A stretch of 64,000 nucleotides of DNA from Hormiphora californensis (lineage: Eukaryota; Animalia; Ctenophora). The position numbers were made by a program, and so were the translations under genes. How positions within the stretch are numbered: position 1 is the stretch's first letter; the number at the start of each line of letters is the position of its first letter. The stretch is from assembly GCA_020137815.1 (NCBI GenBank), contig CM035362.1, positions 1,488,001-1,552,000 of the forward strand, given 5' to 3'. Under the pieces are notes generated by a model. The model saw nothing but the letters and a program-made list of their open reading frames with translations. It searched no databases and had not been told where the DNA came from. Shown piece by piece: positions 1-56,400 of the stretch.

Positions 1-11897
<11,897 letters not shown>

Positions 11898-20300: not shown

Positions 20301-22456
20301 TTCTAAAAACCCTTTTGACCCTAACTAGTAGTAAAAGTGTCTAAAAGTGTCTTGAGGGTATTTAGTGGAGGCTGATGGGGATCTAGTAGAGTCTGACGCC
20401 TTTTTAGTGAGATTCAGAATCTACTAGATGCCCCTCAGACTGTGCTATATACCACTCAGACTCTACTAGATACTTTTAGAGCCAATTGGATACCCCTCAT
20501 AATCAACTAGATGCCATTCAGATTATGTTACTTTAGAGCTAAGAGTCTTGTAGATACATCTGTGAACATGCTAGTTTTGGTAATAAGGGGTTTCTAGAAG
20601 TGTATGAGGGGTATTTAGGATGCCCTGATGGGTTCTTGAAGGACATAAGAGATATCAAAAAATGTTTGGGGGCGTCTAGAAGTACATAAGAGATATGGTC
20701 CAAGGTGTAGCTAGTTGGATCTGGTAGTATCTAGGAGGGTCTGAGGCGTATATTAGTAGTTTCTAGCAGGGTCTCAGGGGCATCTAGTAGGATCTCAGGG
20801 GCGTCTAGTAGCCAGTAGGGTAGACGGGCATCTAAAATGGTCTATATGTTGTATTGGAGGGTCAGAGGGGTATCAGGTGAGATATTACTAGGGTATCTAA
20901 TAGGGTCTGAGGGGTATCCAGTACGGTCTGAGTGGCATCTAGTGGATTCTGAGGGCGCTGGGTGACGTCAATACGATGTGGTTGACACATACGAGTGATT
21001 CTAGGGGGTATCTAGTGGCCTCTGAGCCTCAGAGTCGGAGGCCACTCTGAGGGTATCTAAAGGATCGGAGGAGTATCTAGAAATGTCTGAGGGGTATTTA
21101 GGAGGCTCTGACCGGGTTCTGGGAGATAAGAGTCTTGGGAGATAAGAGTCTTGGGAGATATTTAAGTGGGTTTTAGGGTGTACCTAGTAAGATAAGATCT
21201 GGTCAACGTACCCAATTATGCCCAATTATATCCAATTATGCCTAACTAAGACACTTTTCACACCTCTGAGTTCCATTATATTGCTCATAATCGTATTCAG
21301 CGGTCAAAAGCAGGTCCTTATTCATGGCTGAGCCATTTAAACCGTATAATATCGGAAATATGGCTATGCACACAACTAATTATCTAATTAACCAATTAAC
21401 AAAATGAGATAGGAACTTTTTATGGGCGTCTACCCCCACTAATGCGAGGACGCTACACATTTTAATGTCCTTAGATTTGTCTCTACTCCTTCCCAAAGGA
21501 AAGTTACGTTTTTGGCATCTGCCTGAAAATACTGGTGCCACGCCCACCCGGAAATAAGGGTCTTCTGCAACTCCGATCGGCCAGGAATTTTTTTGGTGAT
21601 TTGGGGGACCCATTAGGGTCACTTAGTGAAGGAACTAGCTTGTTACACATTTTGCCACTAATTTGCGGTCTATTTGGCTATTTAGCCCAATTAAGGTCAA
21701 TTAAGTCCAATTTGCGGCTAATTGGTTGGAGATAGCGACTTCGGACCTTCATAGCGTCAATATAAACTTGGGTATTCCGGTTCGTTTGCAACCGGAATCA
21801 AGTCTCTACGACGCTCCTGAGCTGAGAAACAGAAAATCTTACAAACCCAATAACCATGCGCAAAACGGTTTTAAAGAAGTTCGATTTCCGGCTAAACGGT
21901 TGGAGATAGCGACTTTGGACCTTCATAGCACTGATATAAACTTGCACATTCCGGTCAGTTTCCGACCAATGAAAAGTCTCTACGATGTCCCGGAGCTGAG
22001 ATACGAGGGTGTCAATTAAGTCCAATCAATCAGTTAAATCCAATTAGCGGCTAAACGGTTAGAGATAGCGACTTCGGACCTTCATAGCACTAATATAAAA
22101 TCATATATTCCGGATCGATTGCGACCAATGAAAGGTCTCTACGACGCTCCAGAGCTGAGTTAGCAAAATTGGCGAGTTATACCATCAAGCCAATTAGGGC
22201 CAATTAAGGGTACTTCCCCCAGGAGTTGGTTGGTAGACTTTTGGGATCTCACCCAGAAGGCCTTTGAGGACATTTTAGTGAAGGAATTACAAATGCATCA
22301 AAAATTTCGGGGGTCGACCCCTTTTTTTACACGTTTTCACTAGACTATAACAGGAAGCCCTTGCAAAACCAATTTGTTTGCTGATTATATGTGTATTTAT
22401 TCTCTTCGATCCCACTCACTTTCATGTTACATTTCTTCGTCATTAGCCTCAAACTA

Positions 22457-22668: not shown

Positions 22669-24031
22669 TCTCTCATTTTTCTACTCAACTGTCAAAGTTT
22701 CTCTTTTTCACAAACACACGCTCTTCACTGTCACACGCTATTCAATGTCCCCAAGTACTATAGAATTTTCATATAATACAATAAATTATAATGGTTGACA
22801 ACCATTGGTTGTGTAGGACATGAGCGTGTATATCGTGTTATTATTATTACCCCTTCCTTTTCCTCAGGGTAACTTCCTAGTCCTTCACTATCTCCCCTTC
22901 ATCTCCTTTTCCTCAGGGTAACTTCCTAGTCCTTCACTATCTCCCCTTCATCTCCTTTTCCTCAGGGTAACTTCCTAGTCCTTCACTACCTCCCCTTCAT
23001 CTCCTTTTCCTCAGGGTAACTTCCTAGTCCTTCACTATCTCCCCTTCATCTCCTTTTTCCTCAGGGTAACTTCCTAGTCCTTCACTATCTCCCCTTCATC
23101 TCCTTTTCCTCAGGGTAACTTCCTAGTCCTCCACTATCTCCCCTTCATCTCCTTTTCCTCAGGGTAACTTCCTAGTCCTTCACTACCTCCCCTTCATCTC
23201 CTTTTCCTCAGGGTAACTTCCTAGTCCTTCACTATCTCCCCTTCATCTCCTTTTCCTCAGGGTAACTTCCTAGTCCTTCACTATCTCCCCTTCATCTCCT
23301 TTTCCTCAGGGTAACTTCCTAGTCCTCCACTATCTCCCCTTCATCTCCTTTTCCTCAGGGTAACTTCCTAGTCCTTCACTATCTCCCCTTCATCTCCTTT
23401 TCCTCAGGGTAACTTCCTAGTCCTTCACTATCTCCCCTTCATCTCCTTTTCCTCAGGGTAACTTCCTAGTCCTTCACTATCTCCCCTTCATCTCCTTTTC
23501 CTCAGGGTAACTTCCTAGTCCTCCACTATCTCCCCTTCATCTCCTTTTCCTCAGGGTAACTTCCTAGTCCTCCACTATCTCCCCTTCATCTCCTTTTCCT
23601 CAGGGTAACTTCCTAGTCCTCCACTACCTCCGTGGGTCGCCCTTTGGGGGTGGTGACCAGGGTGAGGCGAGACTCCTCACACACTGGGAACAAATCAACC
23701 ATGGAAAACAGTGGACCAACACTCGCAAGTTCCTCATCATATTTCCTGTTGTCTTGTAAGTATGTTTTGGAAAACCTTAGATGATAAAATCTATTGAAGG
23801 ACGAGTGAATTGTCTCCTCAGCTCCTGGATCATCAAATCTCCCTTCTTCATTAATCCCCCCCAGCACTAACCAAATCTCCCTCCTCCTCCTACAGGTTCA
23901 TTTTGTGTCAGCATTACTGTAACTACGACTTTGAAGTCCTCCTCCTTTCAACCCCATCATTCCTCCTTCAATTCATCCCCAAACAGCCATTCATGCACGC
24001 AAAGCGTCTCTTTGGAATCAACCAATATTAG
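17382..24031 (+). CDS. ORMDL: ORM1-like protein (sphingolipid biosynthesis regulator), 153 aa
   Basis: Exons 17382-17440, 18244-18358, 23604-23755 and 23896-24031 sum to 462 nt: MQVGTTTVESNPNANYLESRYFWVAY..LHYLRGSPFGGGDQGEARLLTHWEQINHGKQWTNTRKFL..KRLFGINQY*. Confidence 0.96.
18404..22347. mobile_element. 3.9-kb foldback-type element in ORMDL intron 2
   Basis: ~1.44-kb near-perfect inverted arms (18404-19840 / 20901-22347) containing ~140-170-bp subrepeats; the centre is made of degenerate CTAGATACCCCTCAGACC units in both orientations; no transposase. Confidence 0.9.
22857..23630 (+). repeat. 49-bp tandem array (16 copies) of the ORMDL exon-3 acceptor plus exon start
   Basis: Unit CTCCCCTTCATCTCCTTTTCCTCAG|GGTAACTTCCTAGTCCTTCACTAT; the last copy runs into the true exon at 23604. 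Confidence 0.95.
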
Positions 24032-33336: not shown

Positions 33337-36300
33337 GCGCGTGGCGGAGACTCCTTTCTATTTTGTAACGACTGTGCAGAGTGGGTAGCAGGACGTTATG
33401 TAACAGACAAGGTTTACCCTTGTTTCAATGCCCCGACATGCCGGGCATTTCTCAGTCCTGTAACGTACCCCCCAACGCGGCAGTTTTACCATTGCATGTG
33501 TGGTAATCTTGATGTTAGGTGAGTTTCAGGTGAAATTAAATTTCGATTATAATTGTTTGCTAGCGTACTTGGTAGCCTACATCGGCTCCTGAAAGGGTAC
33601 CATTCAAGAATCTTTGTTTTCGTACAAATACTCGCGAGAGCTAGGGTCTATCAAGACAATCTTAACCTCTCTCCCCTCACCCGCAGGGAGAATTACACGC
33701 CAGTAGTGTTGGGATGTACGAGGTGTGGGGAGTTAGTTAAACCAACCCTAGAACCACCCCAGCAGTTCTTCTACCTGTGCGCTTCCTGTGGTAAGTTCCA
33801 GGAACCGACCGACACAAGTAAACAACCAATCAGAACTCGTTATTTAGGTCACGTGACTAGTTATCAGCCAATCAGGGACCAGTATTTCCTGATTCGGTCG
33901 GTTCCTGGTTCTCCAGTTGATCAAAGTGGGCACCTGCTGTCCGGCCAATGCTCTGACCACAGTTTTCGCGCTCTGCAGAACATAAATGAGAATATAATAG
34001 GGTCAGGCCAATGCTCTGGCAGGGTACCCGTGGAGTCCTGTGGGGTATAACACAATTATGGTCTTTATATTCATTGGTGACGGTGTTGTATGTAAAGAAT
34101 GTTAATATGTAATACCTGATACCTAACCCAGGAACATTTTGGGATAAAGTTTGCTATGGCAACGAAACAGAATCTTGTTTGGAGTGTGGATTTGAGGTTG
34201 TACCACGGAGTGAGCCCCCACCAACATGGTACAATAATTAGACATTGATTATTGTTCGACATGATTATTGTTCGACATGATTATTGTTCGACATGATTAT
34301 TGTTAGACATGGGCCCTATTACTGCTGCAGTATTACTAGTTCACTTCAGTCAAAGCTCTATTTACCGGTTTACTGGATCTCGATATACCACTAGGAGCCC
34401 GGCGGGGTTTGACTACCAAATATCCCTCCTGTACAGGTATTTGTGGTGTATGTGTGGGGAGAGGACTTCTACACAAAGTTACAAACTTGTTATCATCGAT
34501 TGTCCAGGTGAGTGAACGCTCTAGAACCAGATAAAATATGTAGGTATTATATCCCTTCTTGGTTAGTTTTTGTTTTAATTTTCATCTGAATTCCTTTCTT
34601 TCTTTCTCTGCCGTCTTTCCTTCTTTCTTTGCTTTCTTTCTTTCCTTCTTTGCTGTCTTTCTTTCCTTCTTTGCTGTCTTTCTTCCTTTGACTTTCTCTG
34701 CTTCTTACCACCCTTCTTTCTTTGCTTTCTTTCTTTCCTTCTTTGCTGTCTTTCTTCCTTTGACTTTCTCTGCTTCTTACCACCCTTCTTTCTTTGCTTT
34801 CTTTCTTTCCTTCTTTGCTGTCTTTCTTCCTTTGACTTTCTCTGCTTCTTACCACCCTTCTTTTTTTCCTTCCCATCTTCATTCTCATCTTCTGAGGGAT
34901 CTTGGTCGGAAAATGTTGGTGGATTGCACTTTCCGCTGAAAGAGAGAACACCCAAAGTTATTAGCCAATAACTAGAAAGTTGATTGCCAGTTTTCACCTG
35001 GGTTAAAGTTAAACTATAAAGTCTATGGACTTGGTTTTAGTTTATTATCTGTAATTACCTGGTACATTGGAAGGTAGGAATGAATAATCGCCAGCTGATC
35101 CTGCAGTTATTGTTAACTTTTCGATCCATCAGCATGTGGCCTTTATACCCCCAATCCGCTCCCCACGAATTGCGAATCTAGACAAGATATGGGTTACTGT
35201 TATTTGTAGGGAAGAGCTAAAGTATCGCCCATTGGGCTGCTATACAAAACATGAATTCCCTCAATCATGTTGGCAATAACGGGAAAGACCGGGTCTTCGA
35301 AGACCAAATGTGTTACTTACCCTCCAGTAAGGATGTCCCTGTTCCTTTCCATATCCTACCACAGCGACCGCGTGTAACCCTCCTTTCCCCGAATTACACC
35401 CTGCTACATCTTTATACATGCCTCTACTGTACGAGAAGAGTGATGTGGGACAGCTAACTACAACAGAAACAATTCCCTCGGCAGCGAGCCGGAGAAGTAC
35501 TGCATCATCTCCATAAATCTGTCTGTGTCCGGTCAGTTTTGCTTTGGTCAGAGAGTTACCAGTGTTGTCATAGTTACACGTTCTGTCCTTAGCAACGTAA
35601 GGAGCCTGGTCCTCCGAGGCCAGTCGCCCGGATTTCTCCACGTAGTCATATGCACGGTTCATCCATCCACCCCCACAACCGTTGTTTAATGGTTCGTTTT
35701 CTGTTTTTTTCCGTGATTTTTTTCAATATTTTTCGAAGGAACAGTCAAGGATTTCCTGTTCGGAAAATGCGACAAGGTCACCAGTTGCTAGGTAATACCC
35801 GCCTTCAAAGGCTGATATAGCTGAGAAAGCCCAACAAGAACCACATTGCCCTTGATTTTTTACCGGAACTTGGGCACCTCGGGAAACCCAGTTAACGTCA
35901 GAAGGTAGGGAGGCATCGTTGCTGGTAAGAGTGATGGTAGATACTTCCTCTGCCTCCAGATCCCAAGGTGCGGCAGTGGAGATATTGATACCAAGATGAA
36001 GAGCCCGTTCAGGTTTGGTCATGATCGAGAACTTGTTGACCTCCGCCGTGAAAAGACTGTCGGAATCAGAGTTGATCTCATCCACGGTTTGCTTGTACTC
36101 TTTGAAGGCTAAGAAATGCTCCTTCAAGGCCTTCGGATTTGTGGTCCGTAGTACCATCCCATCGTCTTTTGAGAACCGTCTTACTGCTGCGAGGTACTCG
36201 TCAACAAGGGATGAGGAAGAGATTGCAAAGAGCAGAAGTAGAAGGAACAAAGTCCTCATCCTAAATCAAGCGAGTTTGAACTTGATGTCAAACGAAGAAA

Positions 36301-38772: not shown

Positions 38773-41700
38773 CTACTCGATCTGGTCCTTGCACCTTGTT
38801 GAAAGATGATCGAAGAAGAAACGTAACTGATCAACATTCTGAAATGAGAGGGGTGTCAGTAAGATCGCTTGTCAGCGAATCTGTTTTTCCCACGCTATCA
38901 GACCGCCTGTTACACTAATTGCTGAAATTGTAAACTTTTCACTGTGCGCGATACACGCGCGCCCCACACACTAATGTTCCATGTTTGTGACACAACAGTG
39001 CCCGAATCTGGCCTAAGGGGGCTGTTGTAACTGGTAGCAACGGTCAGGGAGTTATTTTAGTAACGCACGAAATCAAGAAAATAGAAATCTATATTTTCTC
39101 TAGTCCTCTACTCTGAGATAATAAGGTATAATAGGGTCTATCGGTTAAAACCGTGTCCTTGATTCTTACATATTCTGCAAGTAAAAAATGAATAACCTAA
39201 TTATTTTATCATTTAAATTCTCACCAGATTTCTGTTTGGTGTCGTTAACATCATATGACCGTATGTCTCCAACAACTTCTTGCTATTACTGTTTGAGTAA
39301 CCTTGAAGGATTTGGTGGAAGCACGACACTGCATTCTCCCGCTGTAGAGCCAACACTAAACAAGGTCGGTTGACAAATGTTTGACAAATCTGAGAGGGGG
39401 AGAAGGGGTTTTAGGGGTTCGAACACTTTGGTTTGACAGTCAAATCTAGAGGTACCACGGTAAACGGAGATTAGAGACAGTATAAAGACCCGACTGATCA
39501 CAATTTACAATCTCGAAATAAAAAATAAAAAATAAAAGGCAAACCTCGGTTCTCAATTTGAAGAGAGATCGGAATTTAGGGAATTGTGAAATTGGGATAG
39601 TCATTAACCGTGCACCAACCACATCAAATTGACAATTCTGTATCAGCCTGCAAGGAGAGTAAAGAATTGGTATAAAGATGGAAAATATGAGGTAGTAGCA
39701 TATAAGTTTTCAAATGGATCTAGGGAATTACTCACGTTATAAGTTGACTGGCGGGAGAGAGTCGGGACTGTTTAACAGGTTTTAGAAGGTCAGGTGGGAA
39801 AACAACAGACACCTGAGAGAAACAGGATTATAATTGGAAGTGAGATATTATGTTATAATTATGTAATTAGCTAATTGTGAGATTCATTATATTGCTAATT
39901 AGCTAATTAGCTAATGAGCAAATTAATTTTCAACCAAAATACTATACCGTTTGTAGGAGAGGTTTCAAAAGGCAGGGTTTACTGTCAAGACTTCGTGAGA
40001 GGGTGGAATCAACAATTTCATCAATATAGGAATGGGGAATCTGGGGGATAGAAGTGGTTATTATAGAGACCTCTGGGACAAGGGAGGACAGTAAACTGCA
40101 AAATGAGGGGAATGTTATGTCCACAATGCACCAGGCACCTACCCCTTCAGCCTGCATGTCCAGGGTGTTTGGGCAGCACAGTCCCCTTGGGAAATGTTCC
40201 CTCACCAGATCTACACTTTCAGTATAGGATATCGGGGCTGAAAGAAGATGTTTATCAATTATCAAACTAGTGGTACTTCAGTTTGGGTACAGTGTCCCTG
40301 AATAAACGTAGCGCGCGCGATAACACATGAGAGAGAGACAGCGCAGGAGGATAGAAGAAGGGGGGATATCATACCCAATACTTCAGTTACAGTGCTGCTT
40401 GTAGTCGGATTACCGTAATGGAAATACAGTAAGGAGACGCGCACGTTGCATAACATGCGGCAAAAAGTGCATGTGTTCAGCACGTACTAAAGTCCGTTTC
40501 AAGCGACTTGACCCATAATTCTTGGAATTTGGCGCATTGCACGTGTATTTACAAAGGGGAAATCCTGAATTTCCAGGAATCTCAGGTCAAGTCGTTTGAA
40601 ACGCACTTTATAAGCGCCCTGATTGGCCACGGTTGCGCGTCGTCTTACTGTTAGGATTCAAAAACTTGTATTTTATTATTTCCCTTTCTTCTAACTTGGA
40701 AAGAACAACCAATAAACAAAAAAAACATTAAAATTCTCACCTAAGAAATCCCCCGGCTGGCTGGCGAAACTTGCCCGGAGAGAGAACTGATGGTTGAACT
40801 TGGCCTCCTTTAGATCAGGGGGTCCAACAAGTTGACTCAATTTGTACACAGCATTCTCCGCTTGGACACAGAAAACTAGCCGATCAGAACGGGAGAGATG
40901 CAGCCCGACGATAGTGAATTCTGGGGGGTGGGAGGGTGGGTTTGGAGACTGAGGATAAATTTAGAGGGTTACTTTTTTAAATAACTTAGTACGAGGTATT
41001 TGAAAAAATATAGTTTCTATCCCCACGCATACCTTCCTGTTCCAATCGTTTCATTATTTTCCCCATACTCCCTACAAGTGCTGTCTCCAGAAGAGTTGGT
41101 ATAACTCGGGGTGGAGCCAACATAGACTTTAGTATCCCCTCACTCTGGTACACCAACCGATCCGGTAAATCGGAGAGAGTTAGTCGACCTGGTAGGGTAA
41201 ATCGGAGAGAGTTAGTCGACCTGGTAGGGTAAATCGGAGAGAGTTAGTCGACCTGGTAGGGTAAATCGGAGAGAGTTAGTCGACCTGGTAGGGAAAATCG
41301 GAGAGAGTTAGTCGACCTGGTAGGGTAAATCGGAGAGAGTTAGTCGACCTGGTACTCTGGTAGGGTAAATCGGAGAGAGTTAGTCGACCTGGTAGGTTAA
41401 ATCGGAGAGAGTTAGTCGACCTGATTTCCTGATACATAATTAAGATCCCTAGTATCTCCTATACTTACTAAAACTAATTAAATATAATTAACCAGATCTA
41501 ATTAACTAACCTTTATCCTTGCTAATGATGCTGTTAACGTGGGTTCGGGGTGGTGGGAGATGGAGTTGTCGGGGTCTCATTATCTCATCACTATACAGCT
41601 CCTTCTCAAAGAACAACAGAGACGCTGAGAGAGAGGATGGTATTATTATTTATGTGATACAGTCCTGTCACACAGCTGTGTGAAATCACTTTACCCGAGT

Positions 41701-44429
41701 AACCAGATAAGAATCTACCCTACCTGTAAAAGCGCAATTAAATAATATACCAAACATGCAAATAATTAATTAAATCAAAATAGGTAAATGATAAATAAAT
41801 CGTTCGAATAATATATAACACAAACCGAGTTTATAAGCATGTTCGGGTGTTTCACTCGTGATGCAATCCTTCTTATTGACCATCAACTCCTGAACCAGCT
41901 GAAAGGCGTTGATTGCCCGTACTAACAGTGCTAACACCGGAACTGGAAAACAGATATTGTGTGACACAAACATTATTCCATTGGGAGAGGGAAATTGAGA
42001 ACTCGAGTATTCTAATGAATGGCTGTCATGTAATTATTTAGAAAGCTCTCTATAGTAGTCGCGGGGTGATTTCGTAACCAAGCTAAATACCTGTTTGAAG
42101 ATGTTGCACATTTCCCTTCCAAGCGGGCTCTCCTACCTCATATTTAGTTAGCTCACGAGCCTGGTGTTAAAAATAAAAGTTAGTAATCTCTTCAGCTTCG
42201 GAAGAATCCGTCTTTTCACGGTCACACAGTTAGTAAGAGTGAACTGTAAGACTGTAAGAATGAACTGTAAGACTGTAAGACTGTAAGAATGAACTGTAAG
42301 ACCGTATCTTACGCAAGATTTGAGTAAATAATTTGTGCTATACCTGGAAGCTGCTAAGCCGGGGAATTAGCTTCACACCCAACAGTTCTAAATGTCCCGT
42401 CTCGTAGGGTGAACACTCGAGTCCCAAAGTCTCTGAAATGAAGTGAAAATGTAAAGCCAAACTCCAAAGGAAAGTTGCTGTTCTAACATTTCAACTTAGG
42501 AACATACTTGTGTAGTGGATGAGTCGCGTTATCTCCGATCCTGCGTTATCTACTGCAGTGGTCTGTCCTGTCAGTGCGATGACTACAATCTGCTCCAGAT
42601 CTCTTCTGTCTGGTATCATGTGCTGAAAAAAGGAAAGCGATTATTTTCTGAACAATAATCAAATAATCAACAAGGATGTCAGCTGTCAGGGAAATACCAT
42701 ACCGACGCGGATGGCTCAGATGTATCTCAAAACGAACATCCACAATTGGGTATCTTTCAGCTACATACCTGTTTGTGAGACATGAAAAAGTCGAAGGTTT
42801 TCCGTTCTGGTAGGAGTCCAAACTGTCCTCCCACGTTCCAGAGATTGTTATCGGAGAAGGGTATCATTTCAAAATAGAGATAGGGATCTGACGAGATGCT
42901 CAATTAGTGGGAGAAACAGTCTGAGGATGTCAAAATCTAGGTTGTCTCGTGCTGTGGTCCCGATTTGAGAGAACTGGCTAAAAACGGGGTCTACGGCGGC
43001 CGCCCCTTGACAGTCAGATGTGTTCAAATGAATATTGAATGAAATATTAAATGAATTAAAATATTGGTAATACCTGAAAGTTGCTCCTTTGAATACGTTA
43101 TATCGAGATCGGCTTCAGTTGTGCTCATCGTGTGGTCTAGGTTTCTATCCACTACTCTACTCTTCAACTCCCGTATCATTGCCCTGTAATATATGACCAT
43201 TATAAAAGCAATCAGTTTTAAAGCCAAAGTCTAAAGGAAAGTCTCTATACCGTGAGTGATAAATTCCGTTCCTCTTCCCCAAGAAAAGGACAGTTGAAGC
43301 GAGGGTTGGTTGTGACGGACAGGCGTCTGTGGAGAAGTTCTGGGGGAAAATGTGTCTATCATCCCTACTACCAGGGGTGGAGCCATTGGAACTTGATAGG
43401 GATGGAGAGGTAAGGGGTGTCCCATTAAACTTAGAGAAGATTTTAGTTTGTGTCTCAGATAATCCAAGACCAACGCACTTTCGGTAGTTCAATCGGCTTC
43501 GTCGAATTCCTGAAACCAATAAAAAGTGGTAAAGATACCGACTATATTTTTGGAATTGAAGCTGCTAAAAAGGAAACCTCACCCAACAAAGAAATGCCTC
43601 CCTGCTGTAGAACATCAACAACTTCCCCAAGCAGGGACGGAGAGATGAGGGGTGAAATTAGGAGGAAGAAGTATTCGTGGCTCCGCTCAAAGACCAGAGG
43701 AAGGGACGGTTCTTTAGGGATGGCACAGTTGAGGGGGAATCGAGGTCCAAAGTATTTTACCAGCTGTTGTCTGTATCGGGAGAAGAGAATCAGTTTAGGA
43801 ACAAAGAGAAACGATATGGTTTGTTTCTCTTTGTGCTATCGGTATTTTGTGCCGTCACACTGTATGAGTAGAGGAAGGTTGACAATGATTCGGCAAAGCA
43901 TGGATGATGAAATTGTATCATTGAACCTGCACTAAATTCATTTCTCACTCGTAACATACCCAGTTTTCTCTGTGGTCCGTGTGTTTGTCAGTGTGAACGT
44001 TCCGAATTGCATCCTCCTCATAACAGCCCTCACACTATCAGGGTCCGTTCGTAGGGCCAGTTCGCTATCCTGAGGCCCCAGTTTTTCTGAGAAGGGACAG
44101 TTCAAGTGTCAGACTTTTTTATCGAGTGTCCTAGCAACCAAAAACTAGTTGGTCCCAACTCGATTTAATTGTAAGGGTGATTTTCTGTGTTAGCTGTGTT
44201 GGATTATAGTGTTGGGAGAATGGGGCTTCCGTTCCAGTGCAGGGGGAAGTGGGCGCAAGGGTTGTGGACACAATTGTGGTTGTGTTCAAGCATTCGTATT
44301 GAAAAACTCTCGCATCGTGAATAGAACGTGTGAGAGGCATCTTACACTGCACATCACATGACCATCCACTATGATTGCAGTTGTACACGCACACATGTTC
44401 TTCTGTTGCTTGTCGAAGAGTGAGTGAGA

Positions 44430-44484
<55 letters not shown>

Positions 44485-47400
44485 TCCAACATGTACAGCT
44501 GTATGCAATGCATGTTCGTCACACACTATCATTCTATTAGTGCATGAAAGACTAGCCATCTCACTGATCACTCACAAAAATGAATCCGTAAAAAACCGAT
44601 AAAAAGAGACACTATTGATCCCGTGTACATAAACAATAAAAATCAATAACCTCTCTCTGACTCCCCCGGCTAATAATGTATGTATAATAAATGATATTTC
44701 TAACAAATGCTGGCTACATCCTGACGGGGGGGGGGGGGGGCACATTCTCACCTGCCCACCGTTTCGGTGCATCATGTCCTGATATAGCGACAGCTAGATG
44801 TGGCCCTCCTTCTTCTGATGATGATGATGATGAGAAACGTAGTGCCGATATTTCCAGTTGGACATCCTTTATACTGGACAGCACGTGAAATATACCCGCC
44901 TGGAGGGTGGATGATCTATAGTTAATGAGGACCGGTATGAGCGTTCTTGATAAACTATTAACGGGGTTATAACATTAATATTGTGGTGGATGTTACTCGT
45001 GTGATTATACCGGTGAGAGCAGGAGATTTCCAGTTATTGTTGACACACAGAATTCAGTAGATCCAGGATCAGATAGCGTCTCATGTATCTCACTGAGGGC
45101 CACCTTGTGCTTCCCTCGCATCGTCTCAGATGCCTGGACATGTAACGTTTAGTGATTTCTACATCAGTTTGAATATATTTTAACACTAACTCTCAATTAT
45201 CGGTTATATATTATACAGGGAAAGGGCTGGTTCTGGTTGACAAGAATCTTCGCCGATCTCAAAGAATCTACCTACATACAGGTGGCCCATAAATTATGAG
45301 GCCGGGGGACGAGCTGTACCTCCGAAACGGTGATAGTTGTGCAAAAACAAACTACGGGAACATGCTGGAATAATTCCTTGGTAACTTTTTGCAAATTTTG
45401 AGTTTTTTATTCAAAAGTTCATTTTTCATTCATGAACTATTTACACGTTCATTAATGAATTAAGGACTCTAATTTACCGAGAGTGAGCCATTTTGTTTGG
45501 GTTGAATTTATCTTTCCAATGAGCACCATGAAAATCAAATTGAAGCACCAGGTCACATGGCACTTGAGAAAATGCACATGCATGATTTTGGCTCTTCCTG
45601 CGACTTTCAATCAGCTGTATCACGGCTACCTTTTGTTCAATCTTTTTAAAAATTTGGGTGAACATTGGATAAGCAAAGATCTTTGCTCACAAGAAAAATC
45701 AAGGTCAAAACTGAAAGTTCATTTTTGAGTTTTGGTAGTTCATTCCACTCATTCAGGAACCAACATCCCTAAAGTGATGAAAAGTGATTGGTTTTGTTTG
45801 GTCCATACCCTGCAATGACAGAGAGGTGTAAAAACACGTTTTCGGGCTAGTTAGTGGGTGTCCATGTGAGCATGATGATATCTGACACCTCTTCTGAGCC
45901 ATAATCAAGGGATTTTCTCGAATTCAAGCATGTGATTTGGGTTATCTGTGATTGGTATCGTGCAGCAATGTTGAGAGATCTCATAGCACCTCAAAAATTA
46001 TGATTAGCTCAATAAAATGGGCTGATTTTGGATCGAAAATGGTAGTTTAGTTCATTTTGACGTATGTTTTAATCTCTTCTATCATAAATCAACTCATTTC
46101 ATTGAGCTAATCATAATTTTTGAGGTGCTATGAGATCTCTCAACATTGCTGCACGATACCAATCACAGATAACCCAAATCACATGCTTGAATTCGAGAAA
46201 ATCCCTTGATTATGGCTCAGAAGAGGTGTCAGATATCATCATGATCACATGGACACCCACTAACTAGCCCGAAAACGTGTTTTTTACACCTCTCTGTCAT
46301 CGTAGGGTATGGGCCAAACAAAATCAATCACTTTTCATCACTTTAGGGATGTTGGTTCCTGAATGAGTGGAATGAACTACCAAAACTCAAAAATGAACTT
46401 TCAGTTTTAACCTTGATTTTTCTTGTGAGCAAAGATCTTTGCTTATCCAATGTTCACCAAAATTTTTAAAAAGATTGAACAAAAGGTAGCCGTGATACAG
46501 CTGATTGAAAGTCGCAGGAAGAGCCAAAATCATGCATGTGCATTTTCTCAAGTGCCATGTGACCTGGTGCTTCAATTTGATTTTCATGGTGCTCATTGGA
46601 AAGATAAATTCAACCCAAACAAAATGGCTCACTCTCGGTAAATTAGAGTCCTTAATTCATTAATGAACGTGTAAATAGTTCATGAATGAAAAATGAACTT
46701 TTGAATAAAAAACTCAAAATTTGCAAAAAGTTACCAAGGAATTGTTCCAGCATGTTCCCGTAGTTTGTTTTTGCCCAACTATCACCGTTTCGGAGGTACA
46801 GCTCGTCCCCCGGCCTCATAATTTATGGGCCACCTTGTAATAAATAAAATATCCAGTAACTCGAAAACAACCTATTCGATCATGGTATAACAATATTTCA
46901 TACCGATTCAGGGTCCACCTGCCAGGCAGTGATGGCAGGTTGGGTTGTGAACAGTTCCCCTGCTTCATTCCACTGTGACACAAGGAAGAGCTTGCTGAGA
47001 CTTTCACAGAAAGGGTAATCCCGGGGGTTTAGTAGAGTGGTGCTGAAAATGAGTAAATATATTCCTTGTGATTATTGAATACCTGTTAAAATCCTCTTAC
47101 TCTGGCTGACTCTTGGAGGGGGGTGGGCTTCGCACTCCGCCAAGGGACAGCTAGCGAGTTACTCAAAAAAATCGAAGAAGATAACAATAATTGCCTGATT
47201 GCCCGGTAATTGCTCGATAGTTACCTAAATAGCTGTGGATCAATCTGGGCGATAGAGTGAGTTGAAAAGAAGGCTTTAGTATCCCGGTAGAAGGTATTTG
47301 TTTGTCGAACACTGCGTACCAAGAACACATACGTTAGGCAGTTACTGAAATTATAGGGCTGGTTAGTATTCTATTATGAAGTGGTATATATGTCACGCAA

Positions 47401-50400
47401 TGCCAGTATGACCTATAATTTATAGCTTTAACCATTGTTAACCTCATACACCCCCTAATCGTCTCTAATTTCTCTCTGATCCTAAATATTTGTGTCTTGT
47501 CCTGGTTATAATACATCACCTACTTGACGAAGGTAAGTCGGGTTGAGAGAAGGGAGAAGGGTTTGGCACCAGAGCTCAACAACCAAGTGAGCACTCCCTC
47601 AGTCGCGTATTCGGAAACCGTGGGTATTTCATCATAGCAGTAGGAGTAATATTCGGGAGGAAGGGATGACAGTTCACCTGCAAATAGGGTTCGATCAGGA
47701 ACCGACCGACACAAGTAAACAACCAATCAGAACTCGTTATTTAGGTCACGTGACTGGTTATCAGCCAATCAGGGACCAGCATTTCCTGATTCGGTTGGTT
47801 CCTGGGTTCGATAATATTTTCATGTATATGTTTTATCCCCCTCCAGGTAAATACAGTCGGACACCGATGTACCGGGATACTAAGGGGAGAGGCGTTTGCC
47901 CGGTAAATCGGGGAACCCAGTATATCGGGGCCTGACTGTAGAACCAATCGTGGTATAAAAATTTGGGAGCATTTTTTGGCACTTCGCCAGTCTGGGTACA
48001 AGTTCAAAGTTTGCAGTGCTAACTGCTAATTTATATCACGTTTAAATCATGACGTCCTTTTGGCCGACTCCATCTCATGACACTCCAAGCTGCAGCGACT
48101 ATTGTAGAACTCAAACAATAACCTCCCTCAATTTGAGGGTTACAAGACCTTATCACATGGCCATTATTTCTCTCACCTCTTCAGCTCACCCGTTTACAGT
48201 GCTAAATTATTAGTTCGCTGGAAAAATTTTGCCAACCTTTCAGAGAGAAATATTTTCTTATCAGCTAAAATGCTCAGCCAATAAGACCTTGGGAAATCTC
48301 GTCTTTAGGTTATATTCGCATATTTTATAAAAATACAGAGTTATTTATTGAGTTATTGAATTAGCATCTCACTCCGGCTACAAAGAATTTCTTATCTGTC
48401 TTTAGTGGGTATATGCAGCAGTAAACTCGTGAGGACGCTATCATTATTCGAGAATTTGTTATTTTGTGGCTGTACAGATCCATCGATATGTTTTCTCGTC
48501 TCAGTCTGATATATGTATACCTAACGTCCTAACAACCTTTCTTTTGCTTTCTTTTTTGCAAATGTACCGATCTTACTCTCTTTAGTAAAAGTAATGATCT
48601 CGCTCAGCTCTCTTTAGTAAAAGTAATGATCTCGCTCAGCTCTCTTTAGTAAAATTAACGATCTCACTTTGCTCTCTTTAGTAAAAGTAACCATCTCACT
48701 TTGCTCTCTTTAGTAAAAGTAATGATCTCGCTCAGCTCTCTTTAGTAAAAGTAATGATCCCGCTCAGCTCTCTTTAGTAAAATTAACGATCTCACTTTGC
48801 TCTCTTTAGTAAAAGTAACCATCTCACTTTGCTCTCTTTAGTAAAAGTAACGATCTCACTTTGCGGTTGTGGGGCGAACTATGATGTTGTGTATCCTAGT
48901 GACGATCCATCTTGTGACTGTACGATCAGCGATATCAACCTTACCAGGCCCGTTGCCACCAGAAACTACAGCTGAACCAACACTAAATAACTCGAATTAT
49001 GGTGAGTTGTTTTCAAAGGATAATAATAGGGTATGTTAAAGTGAGAGTGGACCGAATCAGAATTGGAAAAGTTTGTTGTAGGTAGTAGAGATTAGCTTTC
49101 TGAGCATTTTGCGTTTTTGCCGCTCAAAATCGACCCACCCATCACTGAGATATTTTTGTTATGTTGGGAGAACTCCTGTTTAATCAGTATGTATAAAACA
49201 GATTAGAAACAATAGTGATGTTTTACTAATACATTCTGAATATAAGCAGTGAGGTTGACATGTCCATGCACAGAAGCAGGGCAATGCAAGCCAGCATATT
49301 AAAAGAATGTGTTAGTAAAACACAAGGATTGTTTCTATCCTGTTTCATAAATATTGATCTAGCAGGAATTCTCCCAACATAACAAAAATATCTCAGTGAT
49401 GAGTGGATCGATTTTGAGCGGCAAAAACGCAAAATGCTCAGAAACCTAATCTCTACTACCTACAAAAAACGTGTCCAATTCTGATCCGGTCCACTCTCAC
49501 TTTAACTTGTGCCACCCGAAATTTGGGTTACTGACACTCCTTCACTTTGCATTGAATCCAAAAATGACCTTTAAGTTTATTGTAGATCTCATTAAGATCA
49601 TACGAAAACTTGAAGGTCATGTTTTGATTGGATGCACAAAAAGGGTGGTGCACGACATTGGCACGTGCTGATCTAAGCGCTCCTAGTACCCAGTGGTAAC
49701 AATATTATAAAGTTTCAGTGACATGGACGGATGTCGATAAAAAACAACGACCAATCTCATGGGACCTAAAAGATAGGAGCTTTTCAATACTAACTAAAAT
49801 TAATGGAGACGTGATACTCCATCTGAGCAACGAGGGCAGGTCCTATTCAGAGCGGCTTGATATATGCCTCCACCGTAGCCCATTTGCATACAGTTTGGGA
49901 GACTGCATATCGGGCTCGGCCTATCCACGGCCTATCCTCGACGAACTCGTTATTTGGACAATCAGAAGGAACGAAACCCATCTTTCAATTTCTTGCGATG
50001 AACAGGAGATGGTGCATGTTTCCCTCTCAGGGACAGGCTGTATAAATTATGAAATATCGGCGGTGACTTTTGATAGGAACGATACAGCATCGATAAGTTA
50101 TGGACCGACAATGCCTTTTAGAGGTACAGTTAGACCCCAATTTACCGGGAAGCTTCGGGCAAAAGGGGTTTTGCCCGGTAAATCGGGGTGTTGGTAGATC
50201 GGTGTCCGACTGTAAAGTTTAAATTCTACATATACAGTCGGATCCCGATTTAGTGGCCCCCGATTTAGTGGCACCCCGATTTAGTGGCAGGATAATTTTC
50301 CCCCGATATAGGAAATTAACAGCATTTGACCCCGATTTAGTGGACACCCCGATTTAGTGGACAAAACCCTTTCCGAGGATGCCACTAAATTGGGGTCCGA

Positions 50401-53400
50401 CTGTAATAATAGGTGTTCTGACAAAAAAAAGCGATTAGCATTTAAATTCTACACCAATAAACTGCATTTTCAAGGCCAATAGTCATAGTAATTAGTATAC
50501 TTGCAAGCTATTGGAGTAGGATCCGACATTCTTTGAGTTGAGTTATAACGGGTGACAACTAAAAATCTGGACATTTTTCTATAAGCTCTAGCGCCGGTCC
50601 CGTTTGAGATACAGCTACGGACCAGTGATAGAACGATTTTTCAGACAATTTTGAATCAGAATAACACAACGGGAAAGACTTAAAAGTTCATTTTCATTGC
50701 CATATCGCATCATTTCCTCTTGACCCACCAAAGCATGTAGTACGGAGATTTGAGATTTCTATGTGACCAAAAACAACCTTCTCGATGAAATAGAATTCTC
50801 AAAATTGGAAGTCTGGTAGCTTATGCTATAACCAACATAACTGCCAAGTTTCAACATCTTAGCTCATCAGGAAGTTGGTTTTCCACGTCATAAATGTTTC
50901 GAGAGATCGTCAAAATGGCGATTTCTCAAATTACCTGTAAACTACGATTTGAAAGGTTTGTTACAGATGATTCTGTGATCAGAATTGAGATTAACGGAGT
51001 GTGAAACAAAGTTAATTTTGTTCAAAATTGTCTGAAAAATCATTCGATCGCTGCCCCGAAGCTGTATCTCAAAAAGAACAGGCGCTAGAGGTGCTAGAAA
51101 AGTATGTAAATTTCACGTAATACATGATTTTGTGGGGCAAGAGGAAGTGATGCGATATCGCAATGAAAATGAACTTTTAAGTCTTTCCCGTTGTGATATT
51201 CTGATTCAAAATTGTCTGAAAAATCGTTCTATCACTGGCCTGAAGCTGTATCTCAAACTGGGACGGCGCTAGAGCTCACAGAAAAGTGTCCAGATTTTTA
51301 GTTGTCACCCGTTAATACTTCCCTTTTCAGTATATGATCGAATAACAAAGAATCAAAAAGTTGACCTCATACGGACAGTAGCCCCTAGTTCTCCAGGGAC
51401 TAATCAATCAACTTACCTATCAACTCCTGATATCGCCACTAAAAGTTGGATGCCATTCGACGATCAAGGATCTCCCGCAAGATTCAGCGTCAACCTACTA
51501 GATAACAGTATTCCGGAACCTATAGCAACCATGACCTTCGAATTTGGGGACTTGTTTAATTGGACGCTCAAATGCGGTTCATCGGAGTTCTTAATAATGA
51601 ATAATTCGTATTCATTATCATCAGGAGATACAACTGGAATAACATACTCCTTCGAACTGTATGAAGGAAAAAAGATTGAACTATTTATGACTGACCATTT
51701 AAATCGAGATGTTTACAGATTCCGTTCATACCTACCTGAGAGTAACTGTGCCGATCAAATTTGTAACACCTCTGCAAAAGGCAATCTTTCAATGGAAATA
51801 AACGACAATGATACACTTTCTGGATTCTACCCATCTCTCAACACCTCACTCGGTGGGTATAATAGTATACTGTTGATGAACAGAACAGATTTACTGGGGT
51901 GCTCCGTTATTAATAGTTAACAGTGCATCTTAGAAGCTCACTTGTTGCTCAACCAATGGTGGAGCACCACGTAGCATTCTGCAAATTGTTATCTGATTTT
52001 ATACTCCCGGAGTGAAGACATGTAAACCAATGCTACAAGTAAAATACATGATACTTTATTTTCAGGTTGGATTGAATACGAATACGGCATAATATTCAAA
52101 CACTACTTGGAGGAGGTTCCGCTAGTTGTAGTTGTAGAAGAGGAAACATACGACCTTAGCTTCACTTTATTTAACCATGACGTAAGAATATATATCTATA
52201 TATTAGACAAGGAGGGTAGAAACTAAACAGGGGTGAGGGATTGGGGGGGGGGGGGTTCGGACCCCCTAGAGAAATATCATTCCGCAAAACTGAGGGGGTA
52301 TACAGTAATAATCCGATAGTTATCATCTATAAAAATGCCCATAAACACGAGTGGTATAACAGATAAATATCGGTCTACTGCATGCGCGGCCCAAAAAAAA
52401 CTAAGGGTACGTTGGCCTTCTTTTCTCCCGGAAGTTTAATTTCGATCACTCTGATATTTTGTCACAATATTTGTATGGTTACTCATTCGAGGAATCCGGA
52501 GTTTCAAAACATAAAAGTGTGAAGTTCATGAATGAACCCAATTTCTCGTTTTTCGGGTTTTTCCATGTTTTCTCATGGTTAAATTCGATTTTATTCTTAA
52601 AAATAGCAACCATGCATTAGAATAAACAATAATAAATGGCAATCCGAGTTTTTATTAAAAATGAATCAAGTTTAGTTGGTGAAATAAATGATTAAAAAAC
52701 GGTCATTTTTACCAAACATCGATTTTAACCAATTTTGACAAGAAATTGGTAAATTTAGGCGCTAAAAATTCGTACGGCCATCACACTTGATCGATATTGA
52801 TTATTGATGTTAGCTAGAATTTTGGCTCTCTATCTAAAAATTCATTTTTACGACTGGAATGATTCCTAAATGAACTTGAAAACAAAAAAGGTATTCCAAA
52901 CCGGAATTTCACAGTCGCCTTTGGGTAACGATTTCCTTTCAAACGCGACTAATTTTAGCTCAATTGGACCACCACAAGAGACACAGTGGCCACTTTTCCG
53001 ACACTAGGTCTGGCCAAGTGACCCCTATTGGACCGCTAGCGTCATTACTAAGTGCCAATAAGCAGGTTTAACGGTCGCGTATCACGTATCACATCTGCTA
53101 ATTAGGACGGTATACCGATACAGCGTCCGTTAGAATGTACGTTCTCTTGCTAACACGTCATAATTTGATGGGGATCACATGACCCAACCTAGGCTAGGTA
53201 AACTGGTCACTGTGATTCTTGGGGTGATCCAATTAAGCTCAAACTGGTCGCGTTCGAAAGAAAATCGATAGCCAAACAAATTTGTAAAACTTTGGTACCA
53301 AAATATGGTCCCGTTTTGGCGTTCATTAAATGTTCATTCGGGCGAAAAAAAAGAATTTTCATCCAAAGGGCTGAAACTCCGGATTCCTCGAATGAGTAAC

Positions 53401-56400
53401 CATACAAATATTGTGACAAAATATCAGAGTGATTGAAATTAAATTTCTAGGAGAAAAGAAGGCCAACGTACCCTTAGTTTTTTTTGGGCCGTGCGGTACC
53501 ATGTATCAAATAAAACAACTCTTGCAGGACGGCTATGTCAATATCAACGTGTATGGAGTGGGGACAGAATCCTTAATGTACTATGATATTGACAACTGCC
53601 AATATACAGTAAAATTCAATATAACCAATGTTGAACATTTACCCAAAATGGGTAGTCAATGGTGGCTTAGCAAGACGGAGCATGTACTGTGGCTGGCATG
53701 TGATGGTGTTATGATTCTGGAATACCACTTTAGCGGTAGTGACTGGGGAGAAAGCTGCACTAAACGGTGGTCAAAAACTACGGAGTTAATTACTTTAAAC
53801 GTGAGCCCTAGCTCAAGGATGATCTATCAAGAATCCCCCAGTAAGTAATGTTATTCTCTAAAAGTCAGTAAACACACTTCTTATTACTCTACTTTAAAAC
53901 AAAATTTAGACAAGATATAATATCTTGTTTACGTTTGATACATCAGTTCCAGTTTCTGCTAAATTCACTTTCACCGGTGATGATAATCCCAACTTTCTTC
54001 CAGGTTGTTCTATGAAGGATCTCGACCATAATGATAAGACCAAAGTACTGGCTGGATCAACCGTGCACCTACCGTGCAAATACTACCCACTGGATATATC
54101 TATGTATACATTCTACACATGTCGTAGAAACGGAACCTGGACATCTAACTCTACAACGTCTTGCATACTAGGTGAAGTAGATTTAATGAAACTACATGCT
54201 ATCACACTGTGTGTGATTCACACACACACACACGCACACATAAAGGTTAAGGTTAAAAGGTACTAGAGGTACTAGAGGTGCATGGTGTGCATGTGATAGA
54301 ATGACAAAAATTGTGACAAAAATTTACCGCTCCTGAGTCCTGACATCCTTACCTTAGATATTATCACTTCCACACAATATGATGCACACACACACACACA
54401 CCACCGTCTTTTTCTAGCTGCGTTTTTCTATTGTCAAACATATAATTATGTATTAGTGAACAACTACTCTTACAGTTTCTAACATACATCTTTTTGTTTC
54501 ATAACCCAACTACTGGAGATAAATAAGATGCCAGACGGTAACAAGACGCTACTGAAAACATGAAGTGATTCAAGATTGACCGGAATGAATATCGAGCAAG
54601 ATTGATTCACCCTCCCGTAAGTTGTTATTTTCTAACCTTCGCAAGGCAACCCGCGGTCTGTTATGTTCTAACCCTCCTTTACATTTGTAAAGCGCGCGCG
54701 TGTGAAACATAGTCTAGCTACGCAACCCGCGGTACGTGTGTCCAAAATAATGATAAATCAAAATTGTATTTGTTTTGTTCGACCCTCCTTCCGTGCTAAC
54801 AATCTTCATTTTATCCAATTTTTATTTTTGCAGAATCGACCAGATTACCACCTGATAATCGCTAACAAAAGATGATTTGGCGCTAACTAGAAGACAAAAA
54901 GTGGGCAAACAGTCAGATGAAGCATACCTGTATTTCCGATCATCAGTTGCAGGACCAACAGTTGATTTGAGTCACTGTCAGTGGTGATGAAGTCCGGTAG
55001 GGGCTCCAGAAAACTCTCCTCAACATCAAATATTACCTGACTACCCTTTGACTGGTCCTCTAACTTGATTCCTGAGTGAAGGTGTAACGTTAGGAACAGG
55101 ACAGTTGTGAGTGTTCAGACATTGCTTGGGTACGGTGTCCCCTCTCTTCTTGGGACGGTCGGACCCAACTAGGACATTGCATTGAGAATTAAACAGCAGA
55201 GGAGAGGGAAACTATAATTGGTGGGGAAACCGAAGGATAAAAGATTGTCTTTGAAACTGGGTTTAAGTGTTATAGGTGTTGTAAGAGAGGATTGATACAG
55301 AAGAAAGACTTTTTGAATGCTGTTTTCTGTGTTTTTAGGACATCTACTATCGGCGTGTGAACTCTAGAAAACTCAAATATTTGTGGTGTCTGAGCGTAAG
55401 TTCTAACATTAAAATTGTTGAATTGTGCTTTATTTGAGTAAGAAGTCCAAGTGCCGGTAGGCACTTCCGCTCCGAAATAACAAGAAATACTGCGACAGTA
55501 GTGACTAAAGGTATTTAATTAATTTACAATACCTACGTTTTTCTTTCCCGGCATAGCCGACAACCCAAGGTACTCAAATGAAAGCATGGCTATAATATTC
55601 ACCCGGCTGTCTTTTGCAAAATGGCATAGTCCTTTAGAAATGTGTGATCTTTACATGTCAGCAGTCCGAGAAATAACTTCTTCGTAAAATATTTTATTGG
55701 GACATTGTTATGCTCTTTCATTCGCGATTGTGTCATAGGTTTTAGTAACAAAATCTCAATATAGGTACATACTATGTGTATCTAAAACTTCATCGGGACA
55801 AATTCTTTTAAACTTTTAAACTTTTGGCAAGTAACATCTTGCTAGATATCGGAACAAAAATTCAGTCTTCATCATTATCCATTCAGTTGCTATGGCAACC
55901 AGAAATGTGTCACCCAAGTGGGTTTTCAATGTGCACCTAAAGCATTGCAAAGGTAGTGTCAACCATGATAGTAACCCATTTTTTTTATAGCTTTAGTTGT
56001 TGACTGAGTTGGATATTATTGTATCCCCCAGTTGCCATAGCAACAGACCTAAGACCATGAAAACGGTAATTTATTTTCTGCAAATTATCGTACAAAATTT
56101 CTAGCTTTGTAAAATTAATGTCTATAACACAACCCATATTTCGGGGCGGAATAATGCCTGAGAAGAATATGCAGAATATTTTTGTGTGAATATGTTTACA
56201 GAGTGATTACTTACGAAGTTCATTTCGTTTTTCCCTAATCTTCGCAAGATCCAACTTTCGCTGTTTTGCAATTTCTGCCTCCTTTTTCTTCCTCATCTCC
56301 TCTTCTTCTCTCTCTTTAATTCTCTCCATTTCCTTCGCTGCTTCCATTTTCTTCAACAGTTCCGCCTCCTTTTCTTTCTGTTTATTTTCCAACTCCTCCA

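Follow-up and report, generated by a model that had tools for sequence, protein, structure and literature searches.

We found that the intron ahead of a 156-nt exon in a ctenophore DNAAF8-like gene carries a seven-unit repeat of that exon's first 25 nt. Only the last AG of this repeat keeps the reading frame, and it is likely the one that is spliced; this working acceptor itself likely arose when a recent slip of replication or repair pieced exon sequence together, a reading to which we give a probability of roughly 0.57. Judged by its layout, the array is a young acceptor mirage and belongs to a class of repeats that is already known and frequent. The preliminary description of this DNA had missed the named class, together with two or three further cases in the window, i.e., the whole 64-kb stretch of Hormiphora californensis DNA that was analysed. 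Among the origins considered, an acceptor built from the exon has the best support, which is moderate and short of proof.

The host gene is a multi-exon gene of the minus strand that runs from ~59835 to 38776 in tblastn searches with proteins of Mnemiopsis (P0006) and Bolinopsis (P0005), and it has an NDK-like domain (PF00334); a Pfam search covering 16 ORF pieces returned no domain match for it. By protein similarity, it is a ctenophore DNAAF8-like gene, a cilia-assembly gene. The 156-nt exon, used as a HMMER query, retrieved three proteins, one of which (P0002) was rejected as a repetitive chance match and left out of our alignment (A1). A profile made of the window exon, P0001, P0003, and P0004 retrieved two long proteins among 7995 candidates, the Bolinopsis microptera "dynein axonemal assembly factor 8-like" protein (P0005) and a Mnemiopsis leidyi protein (P0006), both with 73% identity over the whole exon. 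The relatives' sequences found in the searches are from distant ctenophores (51–73% identity over the exon), and P0007 begins inside the exon and so carries no intron information. With junctions picked by similarity to P0006, the gene model has 950 codons with 0 stops in 22 exons, a count that leaves out one junction of the model (39386 to 38829), and its 21 introns are GT-AG introns of 67–1770 nt (median, 155 nt).

The upstream exon (41511–41624, minus strand; 114 nt; 94.6% identity to P0005 and P0006) is followed at 41510 by the donor GTTAGT, which scores 8.3, a value that 23 of the 27 real donors do not exceed. The best-scoring junction out of this exon leads from 41510 to 41189 and leaves an intron of 322 nt, after which the true exon occupies positions 41033–41188 of the minus strand, with phase 1 at both ends. 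The upstream exon is joined straight to the 156-nt exon, with no insert, in P0005, P0006, and L001, the last of these a contig that looks spliced and comes from a more distant relative; at this exon-exon junction the window model is one residue longer than P0005 and P0006. The position of the intron is an old one: the read-through ORFs P0001, P0003, and P0004 cease to be similar at the very G codon from which P0005, P0006, and L001 run on into the upstream exon. Elsewhere in the gene, the 1770-nt intron contains two near-identical, inverted stretches (45455–45725 and 46390–46656), i.e., an inverted-repeat insertion, and plus-strand ORFs at 49700–50194, 51273–51917, and 53417–54263 (region ~47700–54900) lie inside a ~7-kb intron of this minus-strand gene. 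These ORFs likely represent one or more nested genes, which are described as common in Hormiphora (PMC8527503).

On the minus strand, AG|GTCGACTAAC is present in eight copies, with exon-side starts at 41420, 41388, 41348, 41316, 41284, 41252, 41220, and 41188 and spacings of 32, 40, and five times 32 nt, 232 nt in total (Tandem Repeats Finder score, 434). The seven units (six of 32 nt and one of 40 nt) form a minisatellite at 41189–41420 (minus strand), each consisting of exon nt 1–25, a C, and TACCAG, and each ending in an acceptor AG. They differ from exon nt 1–25 at only 2 of 175 positions, which suggests that the array is very young. As described earlier, the distal copy at 41420 has an intron context of its own, GGAAATCAG as opposed to TACCAG at the other seven, and one unit carries TACCAGAGT, matching the exon at 41150–41142. 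This is the 40-nt unit (41349–41388, minus strand), whose extra 8 nt correspond to an exon 8-mer copied in tandem and bring in two AGs (exon-side starts 41356 and 41354), both leading to stops. The last unit (41189–41220, minus strand) provides the sole frame-preserving 3' splice site, with CTAAC (A at −24), a pyrimidine run, and CTACCAG. On the far side of the array, the unique 90-nt part of the intron (41421–41510, minus strand) ends in the distal AG, a weak acceptor with TTAAT at −20 and a second AG 8 nt upstream; the intron end at 41421–41436 (minus strand) repeats ATCAG at 8-nt spacing, which produces the two weak AGs. No further copy of the 90-nt part was found in the window beyond chance matches of 10–18 nt, and a transposon origin for it was rejected because the 64-kb window holds no other copy.

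Splicing at 41188 leaves the frame open, while all ten other AGs tested (seven unit AGs and three extra ones) reach a stop, including the out-of-frame distal acceptor 232 nt upstream, in agreement with the preliminary description, which had the frame preserved by the last acceptor only. Splicing in frame at every third copy (41284) was rejected, as it meets a stop inside the unit. Frame and precedent make 41188 the likely spliced site. Given that the six inner copies match the last one in sequence and score equally, the last one would be picked by context: it has the intact exon behind it and is nearest to the downstream donor, as in exon definition, and any use of a decoy AG would lead to a premature stop and removal by nonsense-mediated decay. 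Duplicated-splice-site experiments, reportedly those of Reed and Maniatis in 1986, are one basis for such a context rule. The rule is not trivial here, since cross-intron recognition is the usual view for short introns (PMC6142364); exon skipping is described as higher in Mnemiopsis than in sponges (PMC6142364). The 21 introns of this gene are short (median, 155 nt), and cross-intron pairing would favour the nearest AG instead. RNA structure that masks the decoys was rejected, as the region has no folding advantage over shuffled versions of itself (z = +1.30), 90 of 100 of which fold equally well, and predicted folding gives the last acceptor the lowest accessibility of the sites, so that it is not favoured.

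If the decoys were in fact used, a large share of transcripts would be degraded after splicing to an inner AG or the distal one, and the allele would be hypomorphic or null in a heterozygous animal; alternatively, the copy number could have been inflated by the assembly. Such an outcome fits inner sites that are identical to the last one and equal in score, short introns, a very young array, and the ~2% SNP heterozygosity with many indels described for a pleurobrachiid ctenophore (PMC8527503), but the ORF is intact across 950 codons, and decoys also occur in two conserved genes of the window, 15 in the ORMDL gene and 7 in the cullin gene. Copy-specific variants, although possibly read errors, argue against assembly inflation. 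We consider this outcome quite unlikely, and the array most likely serves no function and persists as a tolerated by-product; the same layout at the ORMDL and cullin exons would count toward such tolerance.

Seven high-identity arrays (period of at least 20, at least 5 copies, at least 90% matches) are present in the 64-kb window, three of which span coding splice sites, namely those of the DNAAF8-like, ORMDL, and cullin genes. The ORMDL exon (PF04061, E = 1.5e-17) is preceded by an acceptor mirage with 16 sites at 49-nt steps (22855–23631, plus strand; last site, 23604), in which 15 of 15 decoys lead to stops, while the cullin exon (PF00888) is followed by a donor mirage with 8 sites at 52-nt steps (3241–3658, minus strand; first donor, 3613), in which all 7 decoys cause a frameshift or a stop. 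Pfam assigns the latter gene only to "Cullin"; we take it to be Cullin-3-like. The unit junction of the ORMDL array (22855–23631) holds a small rearranged copy of exon sequence. A fourth array (48576–48864, plus strand; 32 nt in 9 copies, CTCTCTTTAG plus downstream bases) is a candidate 5'-UTR or trans-splice acceptor array, followed 39 nt later by the ATG of a signal-peptide-like frame. Of the remaining three, one lies within a cullin intron and two flank repeated retroelement-like sequence.

Several other features of the window are recorded here as observations. At 4874–10187 (plus strand), a retroelement-like element with minisatellites in its terminal repeats is outlined by two arrays of a 31-nt unit (24 and 34 copies) whose downstream flank is repeated, and by an ORF near 6330 that is zinc-knuckle-like; a short inverted stretch lies at 10118–10187. 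An array of 88 copies of 11 nt (10857–11832) begins 9 nt past a probable minus-strand donor, and is intronic without spanning the site. Mirror-image sets of tandem repeats on either side of ~20350 (~19340–21400) form a ~2-kb inverted-repeat, foldback-like element, and two ORF pieces at 35264–36265 (minus strand) belong to a papain-family cysteine protease with an I29 propeptide (PF00112, PF08246).

The array in the DNAAF8-like gene differs from the other three in how little intron it has copied: its distal and last copies have only 3 intron-side nucleotides in common (CAG), compared with 13, 10, and 9 in the other arrays. The TACCAG at the end of the unit equals exon nt 39–44, conserved coding sequence (Y-Q) with the same bases in L001, and such a 6-nt match between an intron end and its downstream exon was seen at 0 of 26 real window acceptors and in 9–13 of 676 cross pairs (1.3–1.9%). 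In the 40-nt unit, the match to the exon grows to 9 nt, with a second match of 7 nt. The likely template of the unit's 3' end is the exonic TACCAGAGT at 41142–41150 (minus strand; Y-Q-S codons), which is identical in L001 and for which YQS is invariant in A1. Between exon nt 25 and this sequence lies a G-rich 13-mer (exon nt 26–38; 41151–41163, minus strand), missing from every unit, where one C stands in its place.

The strengths of the sites are consistent with this origin. Acceptors were scored with a weight matrix built from 27 real sites only (20 of the host gene, 6 of the cullin, and 1 of ORMDL), the array site being left out. The unit acceptor scores 9.3 bits, with 13 of the 27 real acceptors at or below it, compared with −0.3 for the distal acceptor, a value as low as which only two real acceptors reach. 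The distal site also has the lowest pyrimidine share (0.41) when set against the 27 real acceptors, and its preceding AG, 8 nt away, is closer than at any of them; splicing at the distal site would give a 90-nt intron. Each unit contains the branch-like motif CTAAC with its A at −24, and TAAY-type words at −40 to −15 occur at 17 of 27 real acceptors versus 16.5% of background AG sites. Behind the G-rich 13-mer, the TACCAG native to the exon scores −7.9, lower than every real acceptor (0 of 27 as low). Given that this TACCAG is very poor behind the 13-mer and good in the unit without it, loss of the 13-mer makes exon sequence a good acceptor.

We propose that one complex template switch copied exon nt 1–25, skipped the G-rich nt 26–38 while leaving one C, then went on to copy TACCAG from the exon and, via the CAG common to the intron end and the exon, jumped back to where the exon begins. 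This would have placed the exonic CTAAC and pyrimidine run beside CAG, yielding an acceptor that outscores the distal one, which is probably older, by ~9–10 bits, and the duplication would therefore have been absorbed into the intron. Ordinary minisatellite turnover could then have raised the number of units, and a second switch to the exon could have made the 40-nt unit. With a score of −7.9 for the new acceptor it would create, a plain 44-nt duplication is a less likely first step. The preliminary description had suggested TACC microhomology as the joint. This does not hold, since both TACC words are kept with one C between them and a TACC-microhomology deletion would give a 27-nt unit; the shared word CAG fits instead. 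Its broader suggestion, that duplicated exon sequence has become intron, survives: CTAAC and the pyrimidine run are exon-derived, as TACCAG probably is, and duplicated exon sequence therefore now lies within the intron.

The single junction C, which has no exon template, counts against an exon origin of the whole unit end. It would be accounted for if the unit's intron part were only CAG and CTAC had been inserted at the junction, through TACC slippage or as a copy of the inverted TACCCTACC, a 9-nt match 295 nt upstream (41716–41724, plus strand) that spans the junction; the downstream exon would then not be the template. The ORMDL unit likewise has a rearranged junction. Such a 9-mer is nevertheless found by chance in 2–7% of trials (4 of 201 tiles; a fraction of 0.071 of 2000 shuffles), the AGT of the 40-nt unit would be left unexplained, and the branch-like motif and pyrimidine run would stay exon-derived anyway. 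We regard an insertion of this kind as decidedly improbable.

The status of the distal AG, which the preliminary description had taken as the probable ancestral acceptor, bears on a further alternative. Because it is a weak acceptor, its ancestry is unproven, and the site may be a deletion scar instead of an old acceptor. In an ordinary mirage, the ancestral intron would already have ended in CTACCAG, a 32-nt piece spanning the junction would have been amplified, and the outermost copy would later have lost its intron end by a deletion rejoining at an internal CAG, leaving the exon match as coincidence. The distal site is indeed unlike the real acceptors of the gene, the window's other three arrays are of the ordinary type, and the edges of amphioxus mirage clusters are described as escaping homogenisation (PMC3087553). 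The intron ends implied by the read-through ORFs of relatives (..TTYCCAG for P0001; ..TCNACAG for P0003 and P0004) have neither site's sequence and come from distant orthologues; the CCAG implied by P0001 in one orthologue is like the unit and unlike the distal TCAG. No repeats were found in the 22–28 codons before the exon in these relatives' read-through ORFs. However, an ordinary origin requires a 1–2% coincidence and a second event that removes exactly four diagnostic bases, and the 40-nt unit contains further exon sequence. We therefore hold it to be unlikely, and favour assembly of the acceptor from the exon.

Recursive or Rogers-type removal, the former of which had also been suggested for this intron, would join the upstream exon to 41420 and use the regenerated GTCGAC as the donor of a second, 232-nt intron ending at 41189. 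An AG|GT is present at every unit boundary, and a duplicated AGGT can yield a working intron, with 6–16% spliced in a minigene (PMC3265369). But GTCGAC scores 0.6–1.5, below all 27 real donors, of all the window's GT sites 36–45% do equally well, and its C at +3 is found in 0 of 27 real donors. The required acceptor at 41420 is weak as well, and the ratchet points of recursive splicing are described for long introns (PMC8605326), in contrast to the 322 nt here. Recursive splicing of the array is thus unlikely, and the two-intron scheme as a whole very remote.

Tandem repeats of intron/exon boundaries have been described as "mirages" in amphioxus, in Adh3, the globins BflGb6 and BflGb9, troponin C, and PGBD5 (PMC3087553, PMC3902484), and these accounts report them as leaving splicing undisturbed (PMC3087553, PMC3902484). 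The array described here resembles them in several ways. Its head-to-tail unit crosses the exon-intron boundary (AG plus exon nt 1–25, with only CAG of the intron part shared with the flank), in the manner of the BflGb6 type, in which the intron's 3' end and the exon's 5' part are repeated (PMC3087553). Its units carry splice signals that score like the true site and would give aberrant transcripts if used, since all ten decoy AGs lead to stops; its inner copies are homogeneous and the cluster edge deviates, as in amphioxus; its unit length falls within the 10–72 bp of Adh3; and in both cases several genes per genome are affected, at donors and acceptors alike. In contrast to the published cases, the host is a ctenophore, and correct splicing was shown there by RT-PCR and is predicted here. 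Additionally, the unit has only 3 nt in common with the flanking intron, so that almost all of it is exon, and the duplication itself probably produced the working acceptor. A literature search, largely of openly accessible titles and abstracts, returned no ctenophore mirage and no mirage described with an exon-built acceptor.

Human F7 intron 7, with a 37-bp VNTR and silent pseudo-donors (PMC1557585), is another boundary-spanning minisatellite with identical pseudo-sites in which the exon-side site is authentic (PMC1557585). However, that donor array has been explained by 5'-to-3' scanning (PMC1557585), which would not pick the needed site here because an acceptor array needs the last one; the cullin donor array of the window is a closer parallel to F7 than the DNAAF8-like array. 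In the Rogers model, introns are gained by tandem duplication at a proto-splice site (PMC3265369, PMC2891723). As in that model, duplicated exon appears to have turned into intron through recruitment of latent exonic branch-point, pyrimidine, and AG elements, but there is no new donor or intron position: an existing intron grew by 232 nt with its position in the protein unchanged, and this position is old instead of being intronless in orthologues. With regard to a donor in the first copy and an acceptor in the last, the acceptor side would fit, while the donor side scores below all real donors. Ratchet-point recursive splicing shares with our array the adjoining AG|GT (PMC8605326), and differs in that no functional-looking donor follows the acceptor here (27 of 27 real donors score higher) and in that the intron is short.

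If the proposed origin is right, an intron can swap its acceptor with the protein unchanged, via a small complex duplication that makes latent exonic elements into a stronger site, a form of acceptor turnover that is normally erased before it becomes visible. A more far-reaching reading is that coding sequence alone gave rise in one step to a strong 3' splice site, including its branch point, pyrimidine tract, and AG, and that this site replaced a weak ancestral acceptor and is probably still polymorphic. The setting, in this reading, is a ctenophore genome whose introns are short, in which boundary arrays are frequent and splicing invariably goes to the exon-side site. We put forward this reading tentatively, as somewhat short of an even chance. 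If true, splice-site replacement would have been caught in the act, and the arrays would provide a natural genome-wide assay for exon definition in an early-branching animal lineage. Given that identical sites at 32–52-nt steps separate exon definition, nearest-site pairing, and clean-up by nonsense-mediated decay, these arrays allow the choice of splice site to be tested cleanly in a short-intron non-bilaterian.
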